Shown: piece by piece, positions 5,313 to 27,461 of the stretch
Position numbering within the stretch: the first letter of the stretch is position 1
How the letters are laid out: every line of letters starts with the position of its first letter
Origin: Escherichia coli
Lineage (GTDB): Bacteria; Pseudomonadota; Gammaproteobacteria; Enterobacterales; Enterobacteriaceae
Length of the DNA: 53,474 nt
Assembly (NCBI GenBank): GCA_017639185.1
Contig: GCA_017639185.1_4892.1
Direction: 5' to 3' (one strand)
The notes under the pieces: model-generated
The model's input: the letters and a program-made list of their open reading frames with translations, nothing else
What the model was told of the DNA's origin: nothing
Database searches by the model: none
Translations under genes and position numbers: made by a program

Positions 5313-5320
5313 TCAGCTCC

Positions 5321-5959
5321 TTACTCAGCAGTAACAGTTACTGACGCGGTGTCAGTGAAGCTGCCATCAGCTGTTTTGACAGTGATGGTGACGACGCCAG
5401 CTGCTTTACCAGTCACCAGACCGGTAGCGCTAACAGTAGCTTTAGCCGTGTCATTGGACTCGTAGGTAACAGCTTTGTTAGTAGCGCCAGCAGGCAGCAC
5501 AGTTGCAGTCAGCTGTACAGTAGAGCCTACTACAACGCTGGGCGACTTAGGCGCTAACGTAACACCAGTGACGGCTACAGGCGGAGCAGTTACCGTAATT
5601 GCTACGGTATCGGTTTTGGCAGGGTCAAGCTTGGATTTAGCAGTAATAGTTGCTGAACCTACTTTGATACCCTGAACACGACCTGAACCATCAACAGTGG
5701 CATTAGCAGGTGTATCGCTTTCCCACAATACGGTGACGTCATCTGCGTCTGCCGGGGCTACTGCTGCTGTCAGAGTAGTAAACTCACCAACAGCAATTGA
5801 CTTAGCTTTAGGGGTAACAGTTACACCGGTAACTGGGGTTGGAATGAATTTTCCGTTCTCATCAAGCTTGGTCGGCTTGGCTAACGGGAACTGAGTAACC
5901 GACTCTTGACGCAGGTCTGCGTCTTTAACAGGACGGTTGGCTGTAGTACGATTTGCCAT
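5321..5959 (-). CDS. virion protein with two Ig-like (Big_2-type) domains
   Basis: 212 aa. Repeats ATVDGSGRVQGIKVGSATITA and ATVSATGLVTGKAAGVVTITV. Ala/Thr/Val-rich. Confidence 0.6.
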   Translation of the reverse strand: MANRTTANRPVKDADLRQESVTQFPLAKPTKLDENGKFIPTPVTGVTVTPKAKSIAVGEFTTLTAAVAPADADDVTVLWESDTPANATVDGSGRVQGIKVGSATITAKSKLDPAKTDTVAITVTAPPVAVTGVTLAPKSPSVVVGSTVQLTATVLPAGATNKAVTYESNDTAKATVSATGLVTGKAAGVVTITVKTADGSFTDTASVTVTAE

Positions 5960-6026
5960 CTGGAGAATCCTCTTATTGGGTGCGCCAGCTTATTATAGGC
6001 TGGCGCCTCGGTTAAGTAAATAGTGG

Positions 6027-8984
6027 TTACGGACCTAAATCATAAATATCTGCTTTAGCCCCTTTGTTTTTGTACAGCAGGTATAAGCCCAACCCTCGTA
6101 ATATTTCGCCAGAGTAAAAACCATAGTACATGGCGTTGCTTTCAGGTCCGGTACCAGTTTCAAGGCGTAACGCTGGCGACCAACCACCATCCATTACATG
6201 CCCCGGAATACCAGTTAGGTCATAGTGGTCTTCTAGCTCATTGACAAGCATATCCATCAGCTTATCAAGTCCTGATACTGTTGACCCACAAAGGGCCGAC
6301 ATAGCTGCACCAGCAAGCCATAGTCCACACATGTGACCTGTGAAGTCTGAAGGGACTGGCAGAGCAACACCTTCTTGCGGGAAGTTAGAAGGTGACACAC
6401 CTCCTGACCTTTCCATGAAGTCAAGCAACCATTTTGACCAGTTATCCACATAAGCAATAAGCTTACTCGGAACTGGCTTACCACGGTTTACTAGCTCATA
6501 CCATCCACGTGCTGCGGAGAAATAAGCACGAGGCTGGTAACCTGACCATGCACTACCATTACCCCAGTGATACATGGTAAACGTATCAGGTACACCGTAT
6601 TTAAAGTTATCCCAACGGTTCCAGATAAAAGCAGATGCACCAGGACCTAGCTGACCAAACTTCTTAAAGTACCATTGCTGAGAATCGTACAAAAAGTTAA
6701 CCATGTTGTTCAGCCTGATTGTACCTGCTGCAGTATCGTCATGCGTAAAGACAAACGGATACTGATACCCAGGGTAAGGTAGACCGTGCCAACCGTCAAA
6801 CTGCTGAGAATCAGGGTTATAAATGTTGGAGAACGGAATAACACCAGGCGTATAAGCAAGGTTATCATTCTCATAGTCCAGCACAGTACAGTCACCTAGC
6901 TTAGCTGTGTACGGGTTATCAGCCGAGAAAGTAAGACGGTACTTAATCGTATAACCAATCGGCCAGTTATAGCGAGGCGGAACATCATTCACACAGTACC
7001 AGCTAATACTTGTCGACGTATCAACACCATCAGGCAGTACAAACGAGAACTGCTTAATCTCGCCGAATTGTGGGCTAGCTGGTGGTGTACCTGTGTTTTC
7101 CTGGTATGAAGCCAGCCTGAACTCCCATGTACGAATCTGCTGAGTTACCCAGCCTGGTGCGGCAGGTAAATCACGTACCCAGCTCCAGCCTTGCGTGTCA
7201 GTTACTTTGATGCACAACGGACCTGTAGAAGTATACGTCAGCGAGTTTAAAGGTGCCTGGGAAGATTCCAGTAACCAAAAGCCTATAATGGCACCTGACG
7301 AACTATCAGGTATTGTCATACGAACAGTGTTGCCACGTCTGTTGTCAAGTATGTCAGTACGGTAAGACACCGCAATAGTGGCATTGCCATAATCAGTGGA
7401 TGAACGAATATCAGCTAAGATATACTCAGAACCGTCTGGCTTAGTACCTGCGACAAAATCGCTTAACGGAATGTCGTAGTTAGCAGGCGAAGCACCAAGA
7501 GCAGGTAGCTGTGTGACAAAACGATAGATGTTTTGCTCGACGTCAACCTTCTCACGGTTCATGTACATTTCCACCTTGACACTGATATTCTGACCAGCAT
7601 CATCTTTGCCACCGACCTCTGTACGTATCTTAGCTGTTGGCTTACACTTAAACCATACAGCCTGTTGCTCCAGAGATGATTGAGCTTTTTCGTTCTGACG
7701 CAGAACTATATAACCATTTTCATCACGTGAATATATAGCTTGTGCCAGTTCAGGATAAGACCAATCATAAGAGATGCCATCAGTAAACGGAGATGACGCG
7801 TGAGAGTCTTGACGGAAGAACTGGTCTTGTTTATCAATATCAATATACTCCTCCAGCGTAAACAGGACAGCTTGCCAAGCGTTGTAATACTTTTGCTCTT
7901 TAGTAATTCGCCACAGCATATAGCAGCAGTCGCAGAACCACAACTCAGCATCCGCAGCATTACCCCGCTGAAGCTCGCCGTACAGTGGAACGTTTACAGG
8001 TCTGTTGTGCCATACTTCATTTCGCTTAAGCAAATAACCACCGTGTTCAACAGGAAGCTTAACGGCGTAGTTAAGCAGATACACACCGTTGACAGTGTGG
8101 TCACGGAGTTGAATCTCACCTCTGCGAGAGTTAGGCAGTCCAGTCTCAAGAATCTCGCCTCCCCATAGCTCATCGTTTTTGCCAGGTAGAACACCAATCT
8201 TGTTATTGGTCCACGCAACAATATACTCGATGAGATGTACAGGAGGTTCAGCAGCTGACCAGTCCACAGTGTAGCTTGGTTCACCCAGATACCTCGGCCA
8301 GTCAATCCAGGCTAACTGATTCCACGGGTCAGCTGGCATGGTAGTGATGCGATAATTGTTGTAAATATCGTCCCAGTCAACTTTATTTTTAATAACACGG
8401 ACACCACCATTAATAGCAGGCCATGCCATGTGTCCCCTGTGGGCCCAAGTAGCAACATCCAGGTACTCGCCCCAGAAAGGAGAACCATGAGGGATTTGTG
8501 CTTTGCCGTTAACAAATTTAACAGGCACATTTTTATAGCCGCCCTGTGTTGGTGAATCAGGGTTGATCGGGAAGCTGGCTAGCACAGGCTCTTTGCCATT
8601 ACAAAGCCAGTTAGCTATCCAGCGACGAGGAGTATCAGGGATTGGGTCACCCTCGTAATAGTATTTGACGTAAGCATTGAAGTACTCAATTGCTTTGTCC
8701 AGATACCGCTGTTCCTTAGTAGCAAGGTACGCGTGAATTTCGCCGAGTATCAGCAGCGACTGACTTTCAGACGGAGCATCACCGTTAGGTTGGTACTCCA
8801 TCATAGTGTGCGCAATAAAATGGCGGTTGTTCGACACTACTCCTTCTGGGTTGAAGATATAGTGCTGACGCGTAGCGTCGTCAGTTCTACCAGTATTGCG
8901 CTCAAGAAAGTGGTGGTGACCTTCGATAAGGCTTTCGACATTAGCTCGATGGTCTGATCCGTCTTTAAGCAACATCGTGTGCAT
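6027..8984 (-). CDS. 985-aa Trp/Tyr-rich structural-module protein, function unknown (candidate carbohydrate-active or neck-appendage protein)
   Basis: Long uninterrupted ORF. Start codon overlaps the upstream stop (TAATG at 8982..8986). Aromatic-rich composition. Lies between neck genes and the sheath-like gene. Confidence 0.55.
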   Translation of the reverse strand: MHTMLLKDGSDHRANVESLIEGHHHFLERNTGRTDDATRQHYIFNPEGVVSNNRHFIAHTMMEYQPNGDAPSESQSLLILGEIHAYLATKEQRYLDKAIEYFNAYVKYYYEGDPIPDTPRRWIANWLCNGKEPVLASFPINPDSPTQGGYKNVPVKFVNGKAQIPHGSPFWGEYLDVATWAHRGHMAWPAINGGVRVIKNKVDWDDIYNNYRITTMPADPWNQLAWIDWPRYLGEPSYTVDWSAAEPPVHLIEYIVAWTNNKIGVLPGKNDELWGGEILETGLPNSRRGEIQLRDHTVNGVYLLNYAVKLPVEHGGYLLKRNEVWHNRPVNVPLYGELQRGNAADAELWFCDCCYMLWRITKEQKYYNAWQAVLFTLEEYIDIDKQDQFFRQDSHASSPFTDGISYDWSYPELAQAIYSRDENGYIVLRQNEKAQSSLEQQAVWFKCKPTAKIRTEVGGKDDAGQNISVKVEMYMNREKVDVEQNIYRFVTQLPALGASPANYDIPLSDFVAGTKPDGSEYILADIRSSTDYGNATIAVSYRTDILDNRRGNTVRMTIPDSSSGAIIGFWLLESSQAPLNSLTYTSTGPLCIKVTDTQGWSWVRDLPAAPGWVTQQIRTWEFRLASYQENTGTPPASPQFGEIKQFSFVLPDGVDTSTSISWYCVNDVPPRYNWPIGYTIKYRLTFSADNPYTAKLGDCTVLDYENDNLAYTPGVIPFSNIYNPDSQQFDGWHGLPYPGYQYPFVFTHDDTAAGTIRLNNMVNFLYDSQQWYFKKFGQLGPGASAFIWNRWDNFKYGVPDTFTMYHWGNGSAWSGYQPRAYFSAARGWYELVNRGKPVPSKLIAYVDNWSKWLLDFMERSGGVSPSNFPQEGVALPVPSDFTGHMCGLWLAGAAMSALCGSTVSGLDKLMDMLVNELEDHYDLTGIPGHVMDGGWSPALRLETGTGPESNAMYYGFYSGEILRGLGLYLLYKNKGAKADIYDLGP

Positions 8985-14963: not shown

Positions 14964-16412
14964 TTACCGTCCCATATTTATTTTGAGCTTGGTAGTATAA
15001 CGGTTGATGCCACGCAACACCATGTAACGACAATCATCGTATACGTGGTCTTCAGAGTTCGTGTCGACATCTTCCGTGTTGTTCTTGTCACGCGGCAGAA
15101 CCGGCAACGTGTTTATGGCTGCTGGACAGTTTTCCATGAAATAAATGCCCGGCTTTTCCGTTTCGTCCATCTTAACATTTTTCAGAAGCTGACGGAATAG
15201 CTCTAAGCCATTTATTCTCGAACCTTGTGACTTGTCGGCCTTGACCCAGGTTACGCCTTCGTCTTCCATTTTCTTCGCGATAGTCTCAACGTCTTTTTCC
15301 TTGCACGCATAAATCTGACTATCCGCCGGACCAGGATTAACGTTACTTTGAATCCAGCCACCAGCCTGCAGATTTTCCTGTAGGCGAAGAACACCTTGAG
15401 CGACTTCGGCAGCAGATAGCTTAATACCCCTGTTAGCTTCTTTTTCAGAGCACCCATACCATTCAGCTATACGTATAATTGAACCACGCGGAATAAAGTA
15501 CTCATTGCCTTCGTCGTCTGTAAGCGAGGCACCATTTGCGATAGCCCAGATACCAACAGAGAACGGGTGAGTAGAACCCCAGTCAAGAGAACGTTCGATA
15601 GTCCAGCCTTTCGGAATACGCATACGCGGCAGAATACACTTGGTTGACCATACGTCGTCAAGCGCACCACCAGCAACAATATCCCAGTCACCCTCTTTCA
15701 TCGCAGCAACAAGAGCCGGGTCACCAAGACCTTCAAGACGGTCACCGTAGTCAGGGTCGTTTTCCATCAGCGTAGGGTTATCAGTCATCTTAGCCGGAAT
15801 GTACTGACGAGCCATACCGCCTTCGCGTTTTTCCTGCTTAACGATTTTCATCGGAGGAGCAGCAGTTACGAAAGTGCGCTTAACCCAGTTATGACCAACA
15901 CCACCAGGGTTTGACCCACAAAAGATGAGTGGCAGTGGCCGGAAAAAGTTCTCAGGTACTTTGAGAGCACCGAGTCGGACACGGTTACGCAAGAAGCGGT
16001 ACATCGTTTCTGTGAAGTGAGTAAGCTCATCCATCAGCAGAACGTGAATCTCCGCACCCTGGTAGGTATAAATATCTTTTTCGTACTGGAGGTGACAGAG
16101 TTTGATGTTCGCACCGTTCCAGAATTTGATAGTGTTGCTCGAGTAGTTAATCTTGCACTTGCCAGCTTTGCACATACCATCCAGCAAGGCAGGATAACTT
16201 GTGGGACCAACCATGTGGTTAGCCGTAAGGTCGTTATAGTTTCGGCGGAAAAGGTAAATCTGCAAGTCAGGAATCATGCAACACATGATAATTGACATTA
16301 CACGCATAAGGTGAGACTTACCACCACCAGCAGCACCACCGTACAGAATCTCAGTTGCCTGAGACTGCAGAGCGGCACCTTGTCTGTCATGCAGGTGAAA
16401 GTCAAGATTCAT
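14964..16412 (-). CDS. terL: terminase large subunit
   Basis: Walker A YGGAAGGGKSH near the N-terminus, Walker B-like VLLMDE, nuclease-sized C-terminal half. Followed by the portal gene. Confidence 0.85.
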   Translation of the reverse strand: MNLDFHLHDRQGAALQSQATEILYGGAAGGGKSHLMRVMSIIMCCMIPDLQIYLFRRNYNDLTANHMVGPTSYPALLDGMCKAGKCKINYSSNTIKFWNGANIKLCHLQYEKDIYTYQGAEIHVLLMDELTHFTETMYRFLRNRVRLGALKVPENFFRPLPLIFCGSNPGGVGHNWVKRTFVTAAPPMKIVKQEKREGGMARQYIPAKMTDNPTLMENDPDYGDRLEGLGDPALVAAMKEGDWDIVAGGALDDVWSTKCILPRMRIPKGWTIERSLDWGSTHPFSVGIWAIANGASLTDDEGNEYFIPRGSIIRIAEWYGCSEKEANRGIKLSAAEVAQGVLRLQENLQAGGWIQSNVNPGPADSQIYACKEKDVETIAKKMEDEGVTWVKADKSQGSRINGLELFRQLLKNVKMDETEKPGIYFMENCPAAINTLPVLPRDKNNTEDVDTNSEDHVYDDCRYMVLRGINRYTTKLKINMGR

Positions 16413-16415
16413 TTA

Positions 16416-16706
16416 TTACTCTTCCCCAGTAGTATCTACCACTTTCTGGTCGCCTATTGTAATGTTCAGGTTGACACCATTACCAGACAGGTTCTGGTCG
16501 ATGTCTGCTTTGACAACGGATTCTTTCAGCTTAGGATACATGTACGGCATAACGCCCAGTGCACCATCCATCATTGCTTTGTAGTCGTCTTCACGTTCAG
16601 CAAGTATGATAGCCCGTTGCATAACTTCCAACGGGTCCAGCTGGATACGTCGCATCGTGGCCAACAGTTCTTCTGTTGCCTCACGGGTTTTTTTCGGTTT
16701 TGCCAT
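16416..16706 (-). CDS. terminase small subunit (putative)
   Basis: 96-aa ORF immediately upstream of terL, 4-bp gap. Position only. Confidence 0.4.
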   Translation of the reverse strand: MAKPKKTREATEELLATMRRIQLDPLEVMQRAIILAEREDDYKAMMDGALGVMPYMYPKLKESVVKADIDQNLSGNGVNLNITIGDQKVVDTTGEE

Positions 16707-18369: not shown

Positions 18370-19040
18370 TCGTGTAAACTCCTGTACCGTTGTATCAGAA
18401 CTTGTTTGTTATCAACATATTCATCATTATAAGTGAAGTCGCTATCAATGTACATCATTAATTTGCTACGATCCATTAAAATATCACTTGGACCTGATTG
18501 CTTGATCGTACTGATAAACATGTTGTCGATACGGAGTAAGTCTTTTGCATGCTCTTCAAGGGCCGAAAGTATCAACTCGGCACCACCTACAATCCAGACG
18601 TCAGTACCTCTGGACTCAAGGTCTGCTGCCATCTCACCCAGATTATTGTAGCCTTCTGAAGCCATAATCTGGCGAGATACCGGCAGCAGTATTCTGTGGG
18701 CTGACATAGGCAGACTCATAGTCATATACGTGTTACGACCGGCTAACAGTACACTATGTCCGACCATTTTTACCGTTACATCTGCTATCATGTTTCGCAA
18801 CTGGTCACTTGGGAATTGTCCCCGTAGTTGCTGATACGCATTATAGCCTGGTTCTGTCGCAATTGAATTAGTCATAGTCCTGAAAAAGAGCATGTCTGAC
18901 GGACATTTCCAGGGCAGACCAGACTTAGGAAGCGCCCGAACCTCTTCCATAGTCTTGCACGAGTCAACCTGATGCTTCATAAACTCCGGTGACAACCCGA
19001 ATTCCCCATTTTGGCCCATTGCAAAGAGAATATTAATCAC
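18366..19040 (-). CDS. dihydrofolate reductase-like protein
   Basis: Segment GLPWKCPSDMLFFRTMT resembles the DHFR PW..P.D..F...T motif. VWIVGGAELILSAL resembles the GGG region. Contains an insertion relative to canonical DHFR. Confidence 0.5.
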   Translation of the reverse strand: MINILFAMGQNGEFGLSPEFMKHQVDSCKTMEEVRALPKSGLPWKCPSDMLFFRTMTNSIATEPGYNAYQQLRGQFPSDQLRNMIADVTVKMVGHSVLLAGRNTYMTMSLPMSAHRILLPVSRQIMASEGYNNLGEMAADLESRGTDVWIVGGAELILSALEEHAKDLLRIDNMFISTIKQSGPSDILMDRSKLMMYIDSDFTYNDEYVDNKQVLIQRYRSLHE

Positions 19041-19518
19041 CTAAAAAGCCCCCAGTAGTGTCAGATAAAAGCGAGTTCATTACGTCTTGTGGCAGTATCA
19101 CAGGATGGTTACCTGTTTCGATTTTTGGCTTATGTTTTGGCGCTTTTTTGCGCTCCATGTGCTCATCATGGGCCTTACAAATGGCATTTACGATGAAATC
19201 GTGCTGATATGCGTACCATTCATCGTTTTCTGGGTCGTATTTAAGCCCTACATAGTTCATCAGCGATGACATTACGTGAATGCCTTCGTGGGAAATGGTG
19301 TTGTACTTCAGGTCGTCTGGGTGGTACAGTTCGACGACGATTAACAGGTACGGATAGCTAACGCGAGAGAATGTAAAGGTAGATGCATTACGCGTTTCCC
19401 GGTCATTCCAGTTGCCAAAATCAGGCAAATCCATCAGTTTTTGGAGCTCTTCGTGCTCTTTTTCGCTACAAACGATAGCCAATTGAGGCGGATATGGCTC
19501 TAATTGAACAATTTTCAT
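19033..19518 (-). CDS. HExxH zinc metallopeptidase-like protein
   Basis: Contains SHEGIHV (HExxH). First gene of the leftward arm, next to the control region. Start taken at ATG 19518 (track start 19530 is GTG). Confidence 0.4.
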   Translation of the reverse strand: MKIVQLEPYPPQLAIVCSEKEHEELQKLMDLPDFGNWNDRETRNASTFTFSRVSYPYLLIVVELYHPDDLKYNTISHEGIHVMSSLMNYVGLKYDPENDEWYAYQHDFIVNAICKAHDEHMERKKAPKHKPKIETGNHPVILPQDVMNSLLSDTTGGFLGD

Positions 19519-19755
19519 AATGTTACCCACAAGTAGGAGACCGTGAGGCCGTTTGATGATTCACATTAATGATAGCGCGTGGAGGAGAGAAAGTACACCA
19601 CTTTTTAGTGAGTGTCTACACAATTTCCGAAAAATATAAAAAAATTTTAGAGGGGCTTCACTTATTATTGTGTTAAGCAAAAGGTTAGCTCCTGCCGTAT
19701 TACTCTGATGATGATTGGTCCTGATAAGGAGAAAATACCAAAAAATAAAAAAAAT

Positions 19756-19828
19756 TCCGCTGGCTCCTGGCGGGTAGCACCCTTGCGAAATTACCCCCCG
19801 CCGCACCTATTTCGATTGAAATGATTAC
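19756..19828 (+). repeat. control-region repeat unit A1
   Basis: About 70 bp, roughly 70% identical by eye to the unit at 19933..20003. Shared blocks CGGCTCCT, GCACCC, ACCCCCGCCG, ATTT.GATTGA, ATTAC. Confidence 0.6.
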
Positions 19829-19932
19829 TATGGTAACTATTGCGATTGATACAATTACCGTGTGAACTACTTCGGCCGTTATAGTACAAAGCGTCTATAA
19901 TTCAGATTGAAATTATATTTTTATAAATAATT

Positions 19933-20003
19933 TCGCCGGCTCCTTTAAGTGGCACCCCTACGTTACTATAACCCCCGCCGACCATTTTGGATTGAGTAAT
20001 TAC
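19933..20003 (+). repeat. control-region repeat unit A2
   Basis: Second copy of the unit at 19756..19828. Confidence 0.6.
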
Positions 20004-20149
20004 ATGCGAAACTATATCAATTGCATATGAGAACCACTCTCAATCGCAAGTGATTATCATTTCTAAAAACTTGCATAAACTTGCAATTCTTTTATGTACA
20101 ATCAATAGCGATTGGTCTATTATATATTTATTGAATGTGATGACTGATT

Positions 20150-20166
20150 GACCAGTCTAACTGGTC
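20150..20166. promoter_or_regulatory. perfect palindrome (candidate operator)
   Basis: GACCAGT-CTA-ACTGGTC, 7-bp arms. Overlaps a TTGACC -35-like hexamer. Confidence 0.45.
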
Positions 20167-20312
20167 TGGAGGATATTGGTATGGTTTAGATTTGGTAGGT
20201 AGTACTTAACCAGTCAACAGGTACATCTGGTAGATGTCAATGGTACCTTTTGCTCTTTAACAATTTGGTAACATGTTTCTTGTTGATAGTAACACTAGTA
20301 ATAGTTTCAACC

Positions 20313-20338
20313 AGTGACTATTGGTATCAATAGTCACT
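20313..20338. promoter_or_regulatory. perfect palindrome (candidate operator upstream of first early gene)
   Basis: AGTGACTATTG-GTAT-CAATAGTCACT, 11-bp arms with 4-bp spacer, about 30 bp upstream of the ATG at 20367. Confidence 0.5.
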
Positions 20339-20366
20339 CCTGGAAACTAATACAAAGGTAACTATT

Positions 20367-20669
20367 ATGAAACTGAACAATATCACGTCTGACGTAGAAA
20401 TGCAAGTCACAATCATGTCAATAGTTGAAGACATGCGCCAAGTGTGTATTGAAAGCAACATCTGTTATGATAACGTACAGCAATTATTTGTTGAACTTAT
20501 TACAGGTGCTGAAATAACTGATAATAAACTCTTGATTGACTTGGTCCGCGAAAGACTGATCTTAATTGGCGAAAACTTTGCGGCAGATGGCTTTAATGAA
20601 ATTTATCATGATGACTTCAGGCATTTGTTGAAAGTCGTACAAGCTGTTGAAAACGCAAGCGCGAAGTGA
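20367..20669 (+). CDS. early hypothetical protein
   Basis: 100-aa ORF, first gene right of the control region. AAAGG RBS. Confidence 0.5.
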   Translation: MKLNNITSDVEMQVTIMSIVEDMRQVCIESNICYDNVQQLFVELITGAEITDNKLLIDLVRERLILIGENFAADGFNEIYHDDFRHLLKVVQAVENASAK

Positions 20670-20762
20670 TTTCAATCATGACAACTTGACAAAAGTTGTC
20701 ATGTTTGGACTTACTTGCCAAGGATTGGCGCTTATCAAAATTCTATCAACGAGGATACATCA

Positions 20763-21332
20763 ATGACAACTATCAACTACGTTTACCTGACTTCCGCTTT
20801 TTCTGTCGAGTCTGTGAAATCTGGTCTGACTACTGAAAGTCTTGGCACTATTGTAGTGCAGATGGATAGTCTTCAGTACTTTGCCAATAACCAGATCATT
20901 AAGATGATTAAGTCGCTTAATGATGAAAGTTCTGTAAGTGTCAAAGACTCTAAAGAAGTGCTGGTGAAGGCTTTGTTTGACGAGCTGAACCAACTGGAAG
21001 TTGAAGAAGTCAAAGTTGCGACAACACGAGCATCCGCTGGTGGCTCTCGCAAATCGTCATCTGGTCCGTCAACTAAAGATACCTGCTATCTGGTGTTCAA
21101 AGATTACAACTTGATGGATAAAGAAGATTCCAAATTGGCGCTCGCTGATGCGATGAAAGCTTGCGGAATGGAAGCGGATGATATTAGAGCAAAACGTGTT
21201 ATCCAGTCATATATGTCATACTACCGGAACGATGTAAAATCTGGTAAAGTGACTGATGGCAAATCAGTAACTGGCAAAAAACCTGATACTGAAGTAAAAC
21301 CTGAAACTGAAGCACAAGAAACTGAAGAGTAA
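20763..21332 (+). CDS. early hypothetical protein with acidic/Lys-rich tail
   Basis: Start at ATG 20763 (GAGGA RBS) rather than track start 20715. C-terminus KPDTEVKPETEAQETEE. Confidence 0.5.
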   Translation: MTTINYVYLTSAFSVESVKSGLTTESLGTIVVQMDSLQYFANNQIIKMIKSLNDESSVSVKDSKEVLVKALFDELNQLEVEEVKVATTRASAGGSRKSSSGPSTKDTCYLVFKDYNLMDKEDSKLALADAMKACGMEADDIRAKRVIQSYMSYYRNDVKSGKVTDGKSVTGKKPDTEVKPETEAQETEE

Positions 21333-21398
21333 TTTTTGAGATGGCGCTCAAGTAGTGCCATCAATGAAAGTTATTCACAATCAACAGGAGAGAGAAAC

Positions 21399-21557
21399 AT
21401 GCTTAAAATTAAACTGACCAAAGACCAGGCGATGGCCTTGCGTGATATGATGATTGAGTTAGAGAAGATGGGCACTTTTTCTGATAGTTCTCACACTTCA
21501 ACTCTTGATTATATTGTTGAAGCCATTGACGACAAATTTTCAGGTTCTGAGGAGTAA
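21399..21557 (+). CDS. small early protein
   Basis: 52-aa ORF. ATG preceded by the 22-bp initiation block ATCAACAGGAGAGAGAAACATG. Confidence 0.45.
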   Translation: MLKIKLTKDQAMALRDMMIELEKMGTFSDSSHTSTLDYIVEAIDDKFSGSEE

Positions 21558-21562
21558 TCAAA

Positions 21563-21820
21563 ATGACTGACATTGAGATGAAAAAAGAACTGGACTTTTA
21601 TGCTGAGCAGTATTGGGCTGAATGGGATGAAGGTTCACAAGAATTTGCGGAACTGGTGATAGATTCAGGAATTGATGAAGTGCGCCAACACGCCTACATC
21701 ATCAACATGAATCTGGCGTCAATTATGGGTATCATCGCCAGCGAATTTTCTGATGGCGAGCGGGACCATGAAGACGTTGTAAGACTGGCAAAAGTTATGG
21801 CTTGGGTGGATGCATTATGA
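21563..21820 (+). CDS. small strongly acidic early protein
   Basis: 85 aa with about 20 Asp+Glu and 6 Lys+Arg by eye. Confidence 0.5.
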   Translation: MTDIEMKKELDFYAEQYWAEWDEGSQEFAELVIDSGIDEVRQHAYIINMNLASIMGIIASEFSDGERDHEDVVRLAKVMAWVDAL

Positions 21821-21990
21821 AAGACCTGAAATTGACTGAAGACGAATTGGCGCACCTGATTGAATTACTGGAATCAAATGCCCAAATTGTGAAAGATCAA
21901 ATATCTGATGCTGTTGGTGGTTCCAAAGAGTTTGATAACTTGATGGAAGATTTCCGGCTGACAATTCAGATCGCAACAAAGTTAGCATAG
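21817..21990 (+). CDS. small early protein
   Basis: ATG overlaps the upstream stop (ATGA at 21817..21820). 57 aa. Confidence 0.45.
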   Translation: MKDLKLTEDELAHLIELLESNAQIVKDQISDAVGGSKEFDNLMEDFRLTIQIATKLA

Positions 21991-22058
21991 TTTCAACAAT
22001 GAACTGTCCAAAGTTGTGATAGTTCATTTTTGAAATTATATCAACAGGAGAGAGAAAC

Positions 22059-22448
22059 ATGTACAGTGCAAAATGCGAAGATGGTATCTATACCGTATAT
22101 TGTGACGGTAAAGTACTCAAAGTTCTGCCAAACGCCTTCAAGTTTGAGCAATTCATGACGGTGTTGTGGGAGAGCCAGGAGATTAGTCGGGAAGACATTA
22201 TTGACCTGATGAATCCCTTGATGGGGTACCATCCAATTCGTGAGTTTGACAGTCGTCCAACTTGGTACAAGCTGGAAGATGGCAAAGTCTGGGAACAAGC
22301 CTGGGACAGATTTGAAGGTGGTTACGGCCACTGGACGGTTTACGTCGATGGTGATGATGCCCAACGCTACTGGGAAGCAATCAAAAATTGTGCGACCCGG
22401 GACGTGACTGATCCGGAATACGACGAGTCAAAATTTGAGGTCAAGTGA
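22059..22448 (+). CDS. acidic early protein
   Basis: 129 aa. Same 22-bp initiation block as the gene at 21399. Confidence 0.5.
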   Translation: MYSAKCEDGIYTVYCDGKVLKVLPNAFKFEQFMTVLWESQEISREDIIDLMNPLMGYHPIREFDSRPTWYKLEDGKVWEQAWDRFEGGYGHWTVYVDGDDAQRYWEAIKNCATRDVTDPEYDESKFEVK

Positions 22449-22648
22449 TGCCACTAGTCAAATTTACGACGGTAGACCTTGCCCATGGATTGCCACCCAA
22501 AGCTGAGCAAAAATTCTTGACAGTTGAGGAGTGGCATATCTGGTGCCAGTCAGCTCTAAAATCTGGGGCTAAACGCACTAATGGTGGAAAAGTGTTTACT
22601 CGCTTCAATAAAGAGTGTATAATAGTAGTTCAGGTAATGATGGAGTGA
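22448..22648 (+). CDS. small early protein
   Basis: ATG at 22448 overlaps the upstream stop (TGATG). Confidence 0.4.
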   Translation: MPLVKFTTVDLAHGLPPKAEQKFLTVEEWHIWCQSALKSGAKRTNGGKVFTRFNKECIIVVQVMME

Positions 22649-22897
22649 TATTAATCAAGTCCTGGTACTGACAGGGCTTGATTAAAAGCTGGTAATTGAT
22701 TCAATCCTGAGGATTTGCCAAAAGTCCTCATGATTGAATTAACCCACAAGTGGAGGCCTTATGGTCCGATGTAAACATGTTGTTGAGTATTCTGTTGTGA
22801 ATCCTGCATATGCTGAAGGTCGGGCTATGAGGAAGCTGGTTGGGATCTTTCTGATAATTCTTATGGTATTGGCTTATGTTTTCTAAGGATGATTTAT

Positions 22898-23065
22898 ATG
22901 ACATTGCTCGACGTGTTAATCAACGCGATTTATCTGGTGTTACCGATCTTTTTTCTGCCGGCACTTCTGACGATGCGGTATTACGCGAAGCGGAGCGGCG
23001 CCAAGCAGAAATACAAAGAACTGCAAGCTGCTGGAATTATCAACCCCCGAAAACTGTACCGTTAA
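22898..23065 (+). CDS. small predicted membrane protein (alternative to track ORF 22876..23121)
   Basis: Hand translation MTLLDVLINAIYLVLPIFFLPALLTMRYYAKRSGAKQKYKELQAAGIINPRKLYR. AAGGA RBS 8 nt upstream. One hydrophobic helix. Confidence 0.35.
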   Translation: MTLLDVLINAIYLVLPIFFLPALLTMRYYAKRSGAKQKYKELQAAGIINPRKLYR

Positions 23066-23120
23066 CCTGGGTTGACATGACAATTTGGTTATTGAATAAA
23101 CTTGGAATAAGGAGCAAATA

Positions 23121-23300
23121 ATGTTTAAATTCTTACAACGTAACCCGGTCAAAGGTGGCATGCAATACTGGGTGGATATTCATGGCGGTGAGTATATGAT
23201 GATCGTCCGCGATGGTAAACCTGCTGAAAGCTCTTTCGCTAAAGGTTGCAACGTTTACAACCAACTGTTTGAGTTCCTGGTTGAAGGCGATTACTTGTGA
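23121..23300 (+). CDS. small early protein (59 aa, below track threshold)
   Basis: ATG at 23121 preceded by AAGGAG. Translation MFKFLQRNPVKGGMQYWVDIHGGEYMMIVRDGKPAESSFAKGCNVYNQLFEFLVEGDYL. Confidence 0.5.
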   Translation: MFKFLQRNPVKGGMQYWVDIHGGEYMMIVRDGKPAESSFAKGCNVYNQLFEFLVEGDYL

Positions 23301-23482
23301 TTGGCTTAATCCTGGCAACATGTGTGGCTACTCATGATTGTAGTTACAAAATTGTTGAATCCAACCCTGAATGGACTACCGTTGAACAATGTGCCGCCGA
23401 TAGTCCATACACCTTACTGAATCTTGGTATTATCCCTGCCAAAAATCAGCGTGTTATTTGTGACGAGCTGAAACAAGATTAA
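23297..23482 (+). CDS. small protein with N-terminal hydrophobic segment
   Basis: GTG start overlapping the upstream stop. N-terminus IGLILATCVATHDCS. Confidence 0.35.
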   Translation: MIGLILATCVATHDCSYKIVESNPEWTTVEQCAADSPYTLLNLGIIPAKNQRVICDELKQD

Positions 23483-23910
23483 TTGACGTGATATTGAGTG
23501 CCGGGCGCAACGTAATAGTTGTAGACCCGGCAAAATTGTTCCCATGTTAATTCTACTAGACCCACAAAGAGGCGATTTGATGCCTCGTTAAAAGTCGTGC
23601 CACTTGGAAAACAGTCAATCACATCAGCCTTATTCATCACCACGGTAGGCTGTTTTCTTGGTAGTTCGTATATCAGCACTGGCATCTTGTTCTGAGCCTT
23701 TGCCGATGCCGCACACTGTCTCCACCATGTTCCGATAGACTTGGTATTGTGCTTCTTCAGTTCAACACTGAAAAACGGCACACCCAGCAAGTCATCCCCG
23801 CCATTAATAGACTGTTGAAGATTGCGCTCAACAGTTAATCCGAACGAGCTATTAAATTTTTTAGCCATTTTACGCTCAAAGTTCTGCCCCTTGGCTCTAA
23901 TATTTACCAT
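23479..23910 (-). CDS. PD-(D/E)XK nuclease, Hjc-like Holliday-junction resolvase candidate
   Basis: KGQNFERK...GGDDLL...FSVELKK pattern (E, D, ExK spacing) read by eye. Stop codon shares bases with the convergent plus-strand stop at 23479..23482. Confidence 0.35.
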   Translation of the reverse strand: MVNIRAKGQNFERKMAKKFNSSFGLTVERNLQQSINGGDDLLGVPFFSVELKKHNTKSIGTWWRQCAASAKAQNKMPVLIYELPRKQPTVVMNKADVIDCFPSGTTFNEASNRLFVGLVELTWEQFCRVYNYYVAPGTQYHVN

Positions 23911-24410
23911 GCACTGTTTCCTTTTAAAATCTGGACTACGCGGTCCAAAGAGTTACCATTTTCTACTTGTTTTTTCCATACTGTCATAATTCTTGACTTA
24001 AGCCTTGCTCTTCCGTGGCAGTCAGCTGTAGCATACGCACGGAGTAAGTCTATTTCATCAGACAGTAGATCCAGCGCTGGTTGAAGCTCTGGTGCAACAT
24101 AATAACCATTCCCACGAATGGTTGGGAATACTTCTTCGTATGCCCAGCGCTGAAATGCTTTAGCTGATTCAAGATGTGAACCGAATATAGCCTGATAAAT
24201 ACCAGGTTCAGTTACCCATACGGCTCCTTTGTCATCAGTAATTTTATAATCGCTGTCTAACCTTTTATAAAGTTTTTTCGAGTGACTGTAGCCTAGCGCT
24301 TTAGATAAATCGCTTCCTTTAACAACAATGAGGGGAACCATTTTGGTTCCTCTATTAATTGATGAAAATGTGATATTTTTACCTTCAAATACTTTTACAA
24401 TTGGATTCAT
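23904..24410 (-). CDS. Bro-N domain protein (antirepressor-like)
   Basis: N-terminal FEGKNITFSSINRG...VKGSDLSKALGYSHSKKLYKRLDSDYK matches the Bro-N pattern. Start uncertain (24410, 24425 or 24473). Confidence 0.5.
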   Translation of the reverse strand: MNPIVKVFEGKNITFSSINRGTKMVPLIVVKGSDLSKALGYSHSKKLYKRLDSDYKITDDKGAVWVTEPGIYQAIFGSHLESAKAFQRWAYEEVFPTIRGNGYYVAPELQPALDLLSDEIDLLRAYATADCHGRARLKSRIMTVWKKQVENGNSLDRVVQILKGNSAW

Positions 24411-24671
24411 AGTTGCACAACTCATCTGTTGAATAATAAATATATTATAACACACACTAACATACAATAACATAGTAAATATCACCGAAGCTTGCCACGC
24501 CTGGCTTTAGACATGCCTACGAATTATTTATCAGTCCGGTTTTTTATTATTTTTCGCCAGCGTAAATTTTTTTTCATCCGGTTCTGATATTAATAAAGAG
24601 ATAAACCGGATCATACATATAGACGCCTCTAAGTAGCTGTTTTTATTACTTCTAATATAATTAATAATATA

Positions 24672-24692
24672 TAATAATAATAATAATAATAA
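24672..24692. repeat. (AAT)n microsatellite inside an AT-rich intergenic region
   Basis: ATAATAATAATAATAATAATAA read directly. Confidence 0.8.
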
Positions 24693-24869
24693 ATAAATAT
24701 ATACCCCCTTTTATCCGGTACTTGGATCCCCTTATTACCCCCCTTTTTCTTTATAAAGGGCTCCATATATTTACTAATTCATGTAAAAAGAAAAGAGTAT
24801 ATAAAACAGTAGCTTAAGTGCACTTAATTCGAAAAACACGGTTTATTTATTCCATAACTAGTCTACCGG

Positions 24870-24922
24870 AGCAAAAAGAGTATATAAAATAAGGGCTTAC
24901 GTATTTTACTACATAAGCCCTT
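24870..24922 (-). terminator. intrinsic terminator after the primase-helicase gene
   Basis: Inverted repeat AAGGGCTTA (24891..24899) / TAAGCCCTT (24914..24922) immediately after the stop at 24927. T-rich run follows on the minus strand. Confidence 0.55.
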
Positions 24923-24926
24923 GATT

Positions 24927-27461
24927 TTACTTAAGTTTCTTGGCTTCGTCGTATCCCCGTTCAGTTAAACAGTAGATATTTGCCGATTTCCCTCTTGTGG
25001 GTTTGTATATTTGAACTGCTAAATAGTCCTGGTCAATCATATCCTGCAGCATACCGTCAATAACCTTGTTATTAGCGGTTATATTAAAGCCATAATTGGA
25101 CTTGAACCAACTTAATGATTGCCGGATAGCATATATGCTAAGCCCGTTCATTTTCAGATGGTCTTCCCGTAAGCTTCTTACAACACCTTCAGGATAATGC
25201 TTAACAATACCGTTCCAGCCTCTTTTGGTGTAAAGGGCCAAAATGTCCCTGTAGACTTTGAGGAAGCCGTCAACTACTTCAGCGTTGGTAGTCGGAGGTG
25301 CGACTATCCTGCTTGTGTTATTGACCCAGGCGGTTATACAACGAAGAACGTATTTGTAAGCCCATTCGATGTTGTCCCTGGTCATTACAGGAGCATCCCA
25401 GTTGTCGAGTAAGCCAATCAGTGCTGCTATGTTGAATACATACTCACCCATTCGGCCCACAAAGGCAGATGCTACTTCGTTGTCCCTGTAATACTGGCGC
25501 ATGTCATTAATATTGCACTGGTATTCGTACAGGAAGTCGTCATCATCCGATTCGTCGTAAATAGGAATCGGGTCATGCCTTAGTTTACCGTTAGGCGGGA
25601 TAGCATTCACATAAGCGATTGCTTCCAGCTTCTCAATCAGTTCCTTTGAAAAGGATGTACGGCGAATCTGCTGGCGACGTCCTACTTTCTCAGGTTTGGC
25701 AAACTCCGCTCGTTCATAGTTAGGGATGAACAGGAAGCGGGGCAAAAAGCCACTTGAGAAGTCTTGCTTGCGGGTGTTGTCAAGAATAAGCTCTTGAGTG
25801 GAGTCACCCAGGATAGAGTAGCACGGTTCGCTTACTGTCTTGACATCATTGTCAGCATTAGCACGTTTGATACCTGTCAGTATACCGCCAACCTTACGCT
25901 TGGTTGAAGCGTCCATCAGAGCTTTCTGAAAGTTGTCCGGGTTGTTAGGATTCATGCGTAAGCCTGAACCTAAAGCCAGACCAAATTCAGGATAGAACAG
26001 CTGGACTGAATGGTATGACGGGTTGGACATCAGTTCAGCAAACGTCCTGGTTGCAAAAGTCTGCTCCCTTGGAATACGATTAAGGCTGATAGGCGATGTG
26101 TCAGGTAAACCAGCCTGGATTTGTGGGAACATTTCGGTATACAACGATTTACCGATTGATGAACCACCCACAAGAATGATGTTGGTTACCAGGAAGTTAG
26201 CATGACCGCCTACTGGACAAACATACTTACGACCAGCGCAGTTGCTCAGGATGTTAAGAGCTGTGCCAATTGCATAGTCGTTAACCCTGTTAGCCGGAGA
26301 TATGTTATCCTGTATCTCAGCAATAAGCCGTTTAAACCCGGACGGGGCCGTTCTGACAAATACATCAGATGGCAGAATATCGTCGTTGACTTTGAACTCA
26401 ACGTTCTCAGCCAGTGATACCCCAGAATTCTTGGCTAACTCTTTGTTAATGTCAAGAGCAAACTTGGTCTTAACGAATAAGCCGTCACGTTGCATCTCTT
26501 TCAGCACAGTCTTACCGACACGACTGAACCACTGATGGTACTTGTCAACAGACAGGCTACGCCGGCTAGGACGACGACCTTCGTATGCTGCAGCTTTGCT
26601 GGCCATAAAGATGCGTTGTGTAACTTCATAGTTACGGGTTACACGAAGCAAGTCTTTTAAGATACGGCTTAAACGTTCAGAACCGTCATTACTCACACCA
26701 ACACCGTCTGGTGCATGCTCATTCAGATAGTGTTCTAAAGCCCAGCGAGTATTGTCGGCTAACTGTTCGTACAGCTCTTTGTCATACTCTTCGCCACGGT
26801 CTTCGTCTTGCTCAAACTCAACATCAATGTCAGGTGCGCTTGATTCAAGAAAGAACTTCTCAATTGCTGCATGCCATTCACGGGCTGAAACAGGATTAGC
26901 ATTGAACTCACTCAACACGTTGCCCGTCATTACCAGGAACATCTCAGCCTTCTGGATTTTGATGTCCAGTTGTTCGTCTTTCTCTTTAGATGTTGCTGCA
27001 GTCCAGGGTAAAGGGATTGCAATGTGTTGCCCTTTGCCAGAGATTGACGTCTCGGCATAAGCACCACGGGTCCCCTCAATTATCGCCTTGTGGGTAGCTT
27101 CAATGTCTGGGTTATCTTCATGGTTGTCCAGGTCAACAAAGTACCACTGGCGAGGAACAACCAAAGCCGGCACAAAGGTGATATTCCCCTGCACAGCTTT
27201 AATCTTCATTTCACGATTGCGAATACAACGTGCCAGGGCGTCGTCGAAAGTCATCCACTCTTCAGGCACTGTTGTGCTGAAGGAACGGCCTGATGGCGCT
27301 CTTGCAGGTTTCTTCGGTTTGGATTGAACTTCAAGAGTCTCGTCTTCGTACGTTAGCTCAAAGATAGCCCAGCGCTTCATATCTTTGAAGACTTGGGGAA
27401 TCCCTTCTGGCTTAAAGTATTTCAGACCGAGAATATCACTCGGCTGACTCGTCATTGTCAT
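24927..27461 (-). CDS. primase-helicase (archaeo-eukaryotic primase N-terminal domain plus C-terminal P-loop NTPase; D5/P4-like architecture)
   Basis: AEP motifs YFVDLDNHED (DxD) and SISGKGQHIAI (sGxGxH). Walker A LVGGSSIGKS mid-protein. 844 aa. Confidence 0.6.
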   Translation of the reverse strand: MTMTSQPSDILGLKYFKPEGIPQVFKDMKRWAIFELTYEDETLEVQSKPKKPARAPSGRSFSTTVPEEWMTFDDALARCIRNREMKIKAVQGNITFVPALVVPRQWYFVDLDNHEDNPDIEATHKAIIEGTRGAYAETSISGKGQHIAIPLPWTAATSKEKDEQLDIKIQKAEMFLVMTGNVLSEFNANPVSAREWHAAIEKFFLESSAPDIDVEFEQDEDRGEEYDKELYEQLADNTRWALEHYLNEHAPDGVGVSNDGSERLSRILKDLLRVTRNYEVTQRIFMASKAAAYEGRRPSRRSLSVDKYHQWFSRVGKTVLKEMQRDGLFVKTKFALDINKELAKNSGVSLAENVEFKVNDDILPSDVFVRTAPSGFKRLIAEIQDNISPANRVNDYAIGTALNILSNCAGRKYVCPVGGHANFLVTNIILVGGSSIGKSLYTEMFPQIQAGLPDTSPISLNRIPREQTFATRTFAELMSNPSYHSVQLFYPEFGLALGSGLRMNPNNPDNFQKALMDASTKRKVGGILTGIKRANADNDVKTVSEPCYSILGDSTQELILDNTRKQDFSSGFLPRFLFIPNYERAEFAKPEKVGRRQQIRRTSFSKELIEKLEAIAYVNAIPPNGKLRHDPIPIYDESDDDDFLYEYQCNINDMRQYYRDNEVASAFVGRMGEYVFNIAALIGLLDNWDAPVMTRDNIEWAYKYVLRCITAWVNNTSRIVAPPTTNAEVVDGFLKVYRDILALYTKRGWNGIVKHYPEGVVRSLREDHLKMNGLSIYAIRQSLSWFKSNYGFNITANNKVIDGMLQDMIDQDYLAVQIYKPTRGKSANIYCLTERGYDEAKKLK

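Follow-up and report, generated by a model that had tools for sequence, protein, structure and literature searches.

Duplicated GC-rich units in a divergent intergenic region of a Rosemountvirus genome: a probable packaging terminus joined to an early-gene leader

What function is served by a pair of GC-rich ~70-bp units and two perfect palindromes in an AT-rich gap between divergently transcribed phage genes? The question is raised by a 53,474-bp stretch of DNA (contig GCA_017639185.1_4892.1 of an Escherichia coli assembly, here called the window), which is essentially the complete genome of a Rosemountvirus, a myovirus of Salmonella and E. coli. The gap is 836 bp long and lies between open reading frames (ORFs) at 19033-19530(-) and 20367-20669(+). 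To its left runs a leftward operon comprising a 165-amino-acid (aa) ORF, a DHFR-like gene and thymidylate kinase, and then terminase and portal; to its right is a rightward run of small ORFs. A preliminary description of the sequence had read the gap as a set of operators and promoters, and possibly as the iterons of an origin. The reading favored here, to which a probability of roughly 0.7 is attached, is that the region is a packaging terminus, namely the end of a direct terminal repeat (DTR), together with an early-gene leader, and that it spans one physical end of the virion chromosome. The observations behind it concern the DTR ends of relatives, the distribution, conservation and spacing of a short motif, and covariation in an RNA.

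Close relatives of the phage are numerous. Over 19400-20500 it shares 98.8% identity with Salmonella phage yarpen, and this region has full-length matches in 38 phage records, and a more sensitive search found the intergenic region in 61 records, with identity falling to 70-78% in Loughboroughvirus, fHy-Eco03, KE25 and Erwinia phage SOI901. A scan of IMG/VR with an invariant 18-mer returned four of the same isolate genomes and one metagenome contig, and identified no more distant relatives. The homologous locus is present in three phages with experimental information on their ends, fHy-Eco03, AEV23 and S144, and in the first two the boundaries occupy the same positions as motif sites in the window.

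In fHy-Eco03, direct terminal repeats of 3,699 bp were determined by PhageTerm and confirmed by restriction digestion (PMC8145870). The deposited record is linear, 57,011 bp long, and carries an annotated terminal repeat whose inner boundary falls inside the homologous region. Written in the orientation of the window, that boundary reads AAAAATTTGCC|GGGGCTTAAATT (the repeat starting with GGGGCTT) and corresponds to the 5' edge of the first unit (unit 1), while the other boundary reads TTTTTGCGCC|GGCAATAAC (starting with GGCAAT); one short motif, in one orientation, therefore stands at both repeat ends. The 57,020-bp record of vB_SalM_Sz begins with 4,263 bases that are identical to its last 4,263, and its boundaries are AAAAAAATTCCGCT|GGCTCC (TTCCGCT|GGCTCC) and TTTTTTTCGCC|AGCGTAAA (TTTCGCC|AGCG). 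The repeat copies are 100% identical in this record (4,263 bp) and in that of fHy-Eco03 (3,699 bp). For Klebsiella phage AEV23 a 3,915-bp repeat was reported from PhageTerm (PMC12918118); in its deposited sequence, which is not duplicated, the motif copies ..AAAAAAATCCGTC|GGCGCT and ..AAATTTTCCGCC|GAAATT have their centers exactly 3,915 bp apart, the published DTR length. Both ends thus lie at the center of the same motif in three independently characterized phages, and repeats that run from center to center suggest blunt or near-blunt cuts. In S144, restriction mapping put a physical end in the same gap, and fast and slow cooling after heating showed no cohesive ends (PMC7432712). The first base of the LPSEYT record lies 7 nt away from the position of this unit 1 cut.

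In the window, the pattern TTYCGCYRGC has only three genome occurrences, at 19755, 19931 and 24552, all on the + strand. Because the pattern was derived after the sites had been seen, a position weight matrix (PWM) was built solely from AEV23, SOI901, SE1_KM and fHy-Eco03, and both strands of the window (~107,000 positions) were scanned with it. The highest scores fell on the second unit (unit 2; 25.5), on unit 1 (19.0), on a neighboring site at 19651 (12.5) and on the 24558 site (12.4), where both strands match at the same center (12.4 on +, 11.9 on -); the next-best score elsewhere in the window was 11.0. These hits occupy orthologous positions, and for that reason they speak to specificity of location, not to independent function. 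A tract of 15 nt or longer, containing only A and T, precedes the core of the motif, a GC palindrome with the consensus CGCC|GGCG whose center GCCGGC is itself a restriction-type palindrome.

Two of these sites correspond to the repeat boundaries of the relatives. The left edge of unit 1 (19736-19764, +) consists of an A-tract and TTCCGCT|GGC, with a predicted terminase cut at 19761|19762 that would form the left DTR boundary. The right boundary (24515-24580, +) contains GCCTAC at -44 to -39, an ATCCGG-type box, a T-tract and TTTCGCC|AGCG, with a predicted cut at 24558|24559, to the right of which come a T-run and a second ATCCGG. The two motifs define a putative DTR of 4,797 bp (19762-24558), present once in the window, which is a collapsed single-copy sequence. 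The right boundary site has furnishings of its own: ATCCGG-type boxes at ~-22 and ~+19 and an inverted AACCGGAT at ~+45 flank it (24534-24610), are kept in yarpen, Sz, fHy-Eco03, S144 and SOI901, and are specific to that site, being absent from units 1 and 2.

A scheme for packaging can be proposed from this arrangement. The terminase would cut concatemeric DNA at the center of CGCC|GGCG after the A/T-only tract, the cut at 19761|19762, the 5' edge of unit 1, making one chromosome end and that at 24558|24559 the other. The 4,797 bp between the cuts would thereby be found at both ends of the packaged DNA as a long, non-permuted DTR. The GC boxes, the 15/30-bp repeats and, above all, unit 2 would act in cis as the region by which the packaging machinery recognizes and anchors to the DNA, and the asymmetric flanks would tell the two kinds of cut apart. 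Candidate trans-acting factors are the large terminase (TerL) and the product of a 96-aa ORF directly upstream of its gene. We infer that the cuts are the same in this phage as in its relatives and that terminase binds to the units; a direction of packaging and activity of the promoters described below are likewise presumed.

The units themselves were correctly recognized in the preliminary description. Their similarity is far beyond chance: a global alignment of 19755-19835 with 19931-20011 gives 59 identical columns out of 85, and their local alignment score of 28 compares with a mean of 7.6 (standard deviation 1.4, maximum 16) in 2000 shuffles. GC content is 0.56 in unit 1 (19756-19828) and 0.51 in unit 2 (19933-20003), against 0.37 for the intergenic region overall and 0.29-0.36 for the flanks of the units. 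The body of unit 1 (19762-19806, +), which aligns with unit 2 and would form the first bases of the virion DNA, carries the GC boxes GCACCC (19777-19782) and TTACCCCCCGCCG (19791-19803). Its ACCCCC box is kept in all 12 phages of the alignment, drawn from about three clades, on which the statements on conservation and spacing are based. Unit 2 is composed of a left half (19893-19940, +), with GTCTAT at 19893-19898 (-45 to -40), an A/T tract and TTTCGCC|GGC centered at 19937|19938, and of a body with an adjoining conserved block (19938-20066, +) that contains GCACCCC (19952-19958) and TAACCCCCGCCG (19969-19980).

The units appear to act as DNA. As single strands, on either strand, they fold no better than shuffles (z -1.6 to +1.0), the body of unit 1 showing no structure at z between -1.1 and -1.6, and for this reason small RNAs and hairpin terminators were rejected as explanations. 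No Rfam family reached its gathering score anywhere in the window; relaxing the threshold to E<1 brought up only hairpin matches, at chance level, to models of eukaryotic miRNAs and snoRNAs. A tRNA scan of the window found nothing real. With neither a fold nor an Rfam match, the units are therefore regarded as double-stranded DNA elements.

Between and beside the units lie the short repeats that had suggested iterons. The sequence GATTGA does occur four times on the + strand, at 19814, 19844, 19905 and 19990, out of 26 copies on the + strand of the 53.5 kb; the clustering has a Poisson P of 2.5e-6 for one 184-bp window, or ~7e-4 when corrected for ~290 windows. Across relatives, only the copy at 19905 is conserved, and with a single conserved copy among four GATTGA was rejected as a functional repeat. 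Two of the copies fall in a pair of 30-bp direct repeats (19807-19866, +; repeat family D4, 73% identity) in which GATTGA is combined with ATTAC every ~15 bp. The ATTAC periodicity is retained in relatives; the GATTGA sequence is lineage-specific. These repeats are candidate protein-binding repeats, the small terminase being one conceivable ligand.

Could the units and GATTGA copies then be operators or iterons of a divergent control region and origin, their coincidence with a genome end being secondary? The idea is in keeping with an AT-rich gap holding GC-rich islands and short direct repeats, with the flanking divergent promoters, with a minimum of cumulative GC skew near 19,000-20,000 and with the strict 176-bp spacing described below, which would likewise be appropriate for an origin-bound nucleoprotein complex. 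The gap does hold the two 30-bp repeats, the ~15-bp ATTAC periodicity and an AT-rich stretch, the repeat sequences being lineage-specific. However, the skew minimum falls at the switch of coding strand and so says nothing specific about replication, the GATTGA copies other than that at 19905 are not conserved, and no initiator gene adjoins the gap; the primase gene adjoins another gap (24560-24926), AT-rich and microsatellite-bearing. The units lie ~200-500 bp from both candidate promoters, and operators or iterons would leave unexplained why the 5' motif of the unit recurs at the other DTR boundary. This alternative is accordingly considered unlikely. The proposal that the duplicated units are operators, in particular, is not supported, given their distance from either promoter and the exact start of unit 1 at the DTR boundary of the relatives.

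Unit 2 is the more constrained of the two. No part of the region is better conserved than unit 2 with its flanks (19893-20066), where 49-62% of columns are invariant (62% in the left half, 49-61% in the body and adjoining block); the figure is 26% in the body of unit 1 and 10-11% in variable stretches. The distance from the unit 1 cut to the center of unit 2 is 175-177 bp in 12/12 phages and exactly 176 bp in eight, in DNA that has only 52-62% identity between clades and contains offsetting indels.

Comparison of the three sites shows how unit 2 is built. The A/T tract and cut core are common to unit 1, unit 2 and the 24558 site. Units 1 and 2 share the right side, with GCACCC(C) at ~+16, TWACCCCC(C)G at ~+31 and then ATTAC-bearing 15/30-bp repeats, none of which is found at the 24558 site. 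On the left side it is unit 2 and the 24558 site that are alike, notably in GTCTAY at -45 to -40 (-44 in some), with an anchored left-side identity of 0.38-0.58, as against 0.24-0.42 for unit 1 and the 24558 site. The two boundary sites are thus combined in unit 2, a hybrid whose left half resembles the right boundary and whose right half resembles the left boundary.

Such a hybrid might be left over, without function, from a local duplication or from end-to-end joining, only the unit 1 and 24558 motifs mattering. The GTCTAY at -45 and the identity of 0.38-0.58 between the left half and the left flank of the right boundary, along with an identity of 0.40-0.56 between the right half and unit 1, form the pattern expected of a junction of joined ends. 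But a neutral relic would decay and drift, which conflicts both with the conservation of unit 2 and its flanks, the highest in the region, and with a distance to unit 1 held at 175-177 bp through offsetting indels, so that a relic is very improbable. Unit 2 may instead have a part in cutting. It can be put forward, tentatively and as a rather doubtful proposal, that one nuclease specificity and three sites in direct orientation generate the long terminal repeat, unit 2 being a master recognition site, or an ancestral single cos-like site that gave rise to both working cut sites, and positioning the cut exactly 176 bp away. If true, this would offer a compact, genetically tractable system for a problem that is poorly understood: how terminase chooses between first and last cuts, and by what means a repeat of several kb comes to be duplicated.

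To the left of unit 1 (19613-19660, +) lies what may be a fourth, degenerate version of the cut-site architecture. It has an invariant TGTCTAC, an A/T tract and GGGGC and lacks the CGCC half; it contains the third-best PWM match genome-wide (12.5, at 19651) and is conserved in 12/12 phages, at a distance from unit 1 that varies between 108 and 136 bp.

The position of unit 1 allows a further alternative, in which the units serve the ends as such, either in their protection or tethering, for example by a Ku-like product, or in recombination of the repeats into concatemers. Unit 1 would be the very first bases of virion DNA, the homologue in S144 of the neighboring 165-aa ORF is annotated 'putative Ku protein', and a PDDEXK/RusA-like resolvase is encoded within the repeat. 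On the other side, the 165-aa product has no Pfam match and belongs only to a PHROG of unknown function, and Ku and Gam proteins are usually regarded as binding ends irrespective of sequence. The other chromosome end is without the GC boxes, which makes a symmetric end-binding role unlikely. To the right of the second boundary there is no significant similarity to unit 1: comparison of that DNA with the unit 1 region gave only the 10-nt ATTACCCCCC, scoring below the shuffle mean and taken as chance. An end-function role for the units is therefore judged quite unlikely, and a site for the packaging machinery remains the preferred account.

Outside the units, the promoters anticipated by the preliminary description are supported, in that two conserved σ70-like candidates face away from each other and serve the divergent transcription units. 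The leftward candidate (19569-19597, -) has a -35 of TGTACT (19592-19597), a 17-bp spacer and a -10 of TATCAT (19569-19574), and would drive the Ku-like/DHFR/Tmk/terminase operon of nucleotide metabolism and packaging. The rightward early candidate (20095-20123, +), preceded by two copies of AACTTGCA (20068-20085), has a -35 of TGTACA (20095-20100), a 17-bp spacer and a -10 of TATTAT (20118-20123), and would drive the small early genes carried in the repeat. In both, spacer length is fixed and spacer sequence variable; the leftward hexamers are invariant in the 12 phages, and at the rightward promoter TGTACAAT is invariant and the -10 is TATTAT, TATAAT or CATAAT across relatives. The same unusual -35, TGTAC(T/A), with 17-bp spacers, is seen at 19592-19597(-) and 20095-20100(+), which hints at shared, possibly modified, recognition of early promoters. 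The units sit in a ~490-bp zone in which no conserved promoter was identified.

Both palindromes are present and perfect, as first described, and neither behaves as an operator. Palindrome 1 (20150-20166; GACCAGT-cta-ACTGGTC, 7-bp arms) coincides in part with a weaker promoter-like match, TTGACC(18)GATATT, at its -35 and spacer; the segment around the palindrome is the least conserved one (10% invariant columns), and only the closest relatives retain it. Palindrome 2 (20313-20338; AGTGACTATTG-gtat-CAATAGTCACT, 11-bp arms) covaries as RNA. In a search elsewhere in the genome, neither half-site recurs.

Palindrome 2 is the tip of a conserved RNA hairpin in the 5' untranslated region (20301-20366, +). 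Its stems are formed by 20301-20306/20360-20365 (outer), 20307-20309/20341-20343 (middle) and 20314-20323/20328-20337 (inner); the Shine-Dalgarno sequence AAAGG (20354-20358) is in an internal loop, and a single nucleotide separates the end of the 3' arm from the ATG at 20367. In nine sequences, 99.4% of the cells of 19 pairs are paired, with compensatory changes at 6 pairs, and in slid controls, with the partner shifted by 1-3 columns, pairing dropped to 28-58%. U·G wobbles occur at two pairs, seven of the nine sequences having U·G at one inner pair. On the opposite strand these pairs would become A·C mismatches, so that palindrome 2 fits a + strand RNA and not a DNA operator. The hairpin of the window has a minimum free energy of -34.9 kcal/mol (z -4.1), and it probably controls translation or RNA processing. 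A conserved block at 20252-20278 (+), GCTCTTTAACAATTTGG..ACATGTTT, with most positions invariant, is also part of the leader of the first early gene.

The predicted DTR carries the early small ORFs, a PDDEXK/RusA-like resolvase gene (23479-23910) and a Bro-N gene (23904-24485), and the repeats of relatives too contain early small genes and the resolvase. At 4,797 bp it is longer than those of fHy-Eco03 (3,699 bp) and AEV23 (3,915 bp), with the Bro-N gene at its right end; the repeat of Sz is 4,263 bp and that predicted for yarpen 4,283 bp, the repeat being longer here than in yarpen because the Bro-N gene occupies its right end. The Bro-N ORF (23904-24485, -; Pfam E 1.6e-12, PHROG 'anti-repressor Ant') has no counterpart at the corresponding position in the yarpen and Sz annotations, and LPSEYT has a homing endonuclease there; the right end of the DTR looks like a variable cargo slot adjoining the right cut site. 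The PDDEXK_15/RusA-like Holliday-junction resolvase gene (23479-23910, -) is inside the terminal repeat in every relative examined, so that each virion DNA would carry it twice.

The candidate trans-acting genes lie at 14964-16706 (-), with TerL at 14964-16412 and the 96-aa ORF at 16416-16706 directly upstream. TerL matches phrog_979 and phrog_2, the Terminase_6N match being weak, and its identity to phages outside Rosemountvirus and Loughboroughvirus is at most 59%, Acinetobacter phage DMU1 being the most similar of those listed (59%). DMU1 was also considered as a possible bearer of the cut motif; it gave no convincing PWM match, and the motif is thus not shared there.

Several points weigh against a packaging terminus. 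The cut positions in this phage are transferred by homology from relatives. Unit 2, the best match to the motif, is not a reported terminus in any relative, and the proposed scheme leaves this unexplained. Since the boundary sites are direct repeats of one motif, something else must assign the ends. The 96-aa small-terminase candidate is without a recognizable domain and matches only phrog_38712, of unknown function, and its S144 homologue owes the annotation as small terminase solely to its position. The evidence for the promoters consists of consensus matching and conservation, a promoter scan overall having given 4 sites versus 4.1 expected in shuffled sequence. The sequences used for the hairpin fall into about three clades, and its covariation thus reflects few independent events. 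Most deposited Rosemountvirus and Loughboroughvirus records are collapsed, arbitrarily opened or called circular, and 'COS' packaging was reported from PhageTerm for Rosemountvirus vB_SenM-1 (PMC7503781), a call at odds with three other determinations as well as the cooling test on S144. When public assemblies were searched by way of the TerL and Ku-like proteins, none of the contigs broke at a DTR boundary; as most were full-length, this outcome is uninformative. The record ends of UPF_BP2 (54.9 kb) and LSE7621 were rejected as evidence because they are uninformative and look like assembly artefacts.

A packaging terminus of this type would have counterparts in known systems. Repeats of several kb with fixed ends are likewise found in T5-type phages (the 'DTR long' class of PhageTerm) and in phiCbK-like phages, and the early genes here are reminiscent of the T5 pre-early genes, which lie in the terminal repeat. 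The repeat here is about half as long as the ~10-kb repeats of T5 and phiCbK, and TerL is only distantly related to characterized ones. For T5- and phiCbK-type phages, no report of a shared palindromic motif at both boundaries was found. Boundary sequences are conserved among relatives in phiCbK-like phages (PMC3556154).

Membership of the cos family was rejected in view of the multi-kb terminal redundancy of relatives and the lack of cohesive ends in S144. Some features nonetheless recall lambda, in which cos (cosQ-cosN-cosB) has a quasi-palindromic core that is cut at its center, like the motif here. The recognition region would be placed relative to the cut much as cosB is to cosN, with conserved repeated elements reaching up to ~300 bp into the DNA on one side, and asymmetric flanks could separate initiation from termination. 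Unlike those of lambda, the ends would not be cohesive, to judge from the S144 test, blunt or near-blunt ends being implied, and there are two cut sites 4.8 kb apart. The scheme also resembles the concatemer junction of T7 and T3 (short DTR, pac sites), with its non-permuted DTR, its ends made by sequence-specific cutting and the need during maturation either to duplicate the repeat or to sacrifice alternate genomes. In T7 the repeat measures 160 bp, and the initiation of packaging involves the phage's own RNA polymerase. In contrast to T7, no RNA polymerase is encoded in this phage group (PMC7432712).

Long DTRs in this phage group have already been published, and the kind of element is well known. 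The papers on the relatives give lengths and coordinates only (PMC8145870, PMC12918118, PMC7432712), and no description of the cut motif, its internal third copy, the spacing or the leader hairpin was found in the searchable literature. For records deposited without their ends, a rule could be applied, namely an A/T tract plus CGCC|GGC at two places separated by 3.6-4.8 kb, and once more 176 bp inward of the first; such a rule would give true ends and repeat lengths from sequence, and it matched the published 3,915 bp of AEV23 exactly. These phages are candidates for biocontrol and therapy of Salmonella and E. coli, and the mode of packaging bears on the risk of transduction. The shared boundary motif and the spacing-constrained internal copy are concrete mutational targets for packaging biology. 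The locus also illustrates that GC-rich repeats and palindromes in a divergent gap need not be operators.

Some smaller observations concern the genomes compared and the neighborhood of the repeat. Near its end, at 5196-6306, the AEV23 record (OR810919) contains an IS5-family transposase, annotated 'similar to Escherichia coli', and a methyltransferase; the record is 55.6 kb long yet without a duplicated repeat, and may be an assembly chimera. ScaI was the sole cutter of fHy-Eco03 DNA among the enzymes tested, from which its authors infer a DNA modification of unknown nature (PMC8145870). From the right boundary to the primase gene (24927-27461, -) extends a very AT-rich gap (24560-24926), and the 1-kb bin containing it (24001-25000) has the lowest GC of the genome, 0.35. 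A (TAA)n microsatellite, which the yarpen record marks as repeat_region, is found in the gap along with C-runs that include ATTACCCCCC at 24734; this gap may be a better candidate for an origin than the 836-bp gap. Lastly, the second early ORF (20715-21332, +) has a C-terminal tail rich in lysine, glutamate and threonine, and its yarpen homologue carries an annotated in-frame repeat_region near the 3' end, corresponding by coordinate offset to ~21278-21311.

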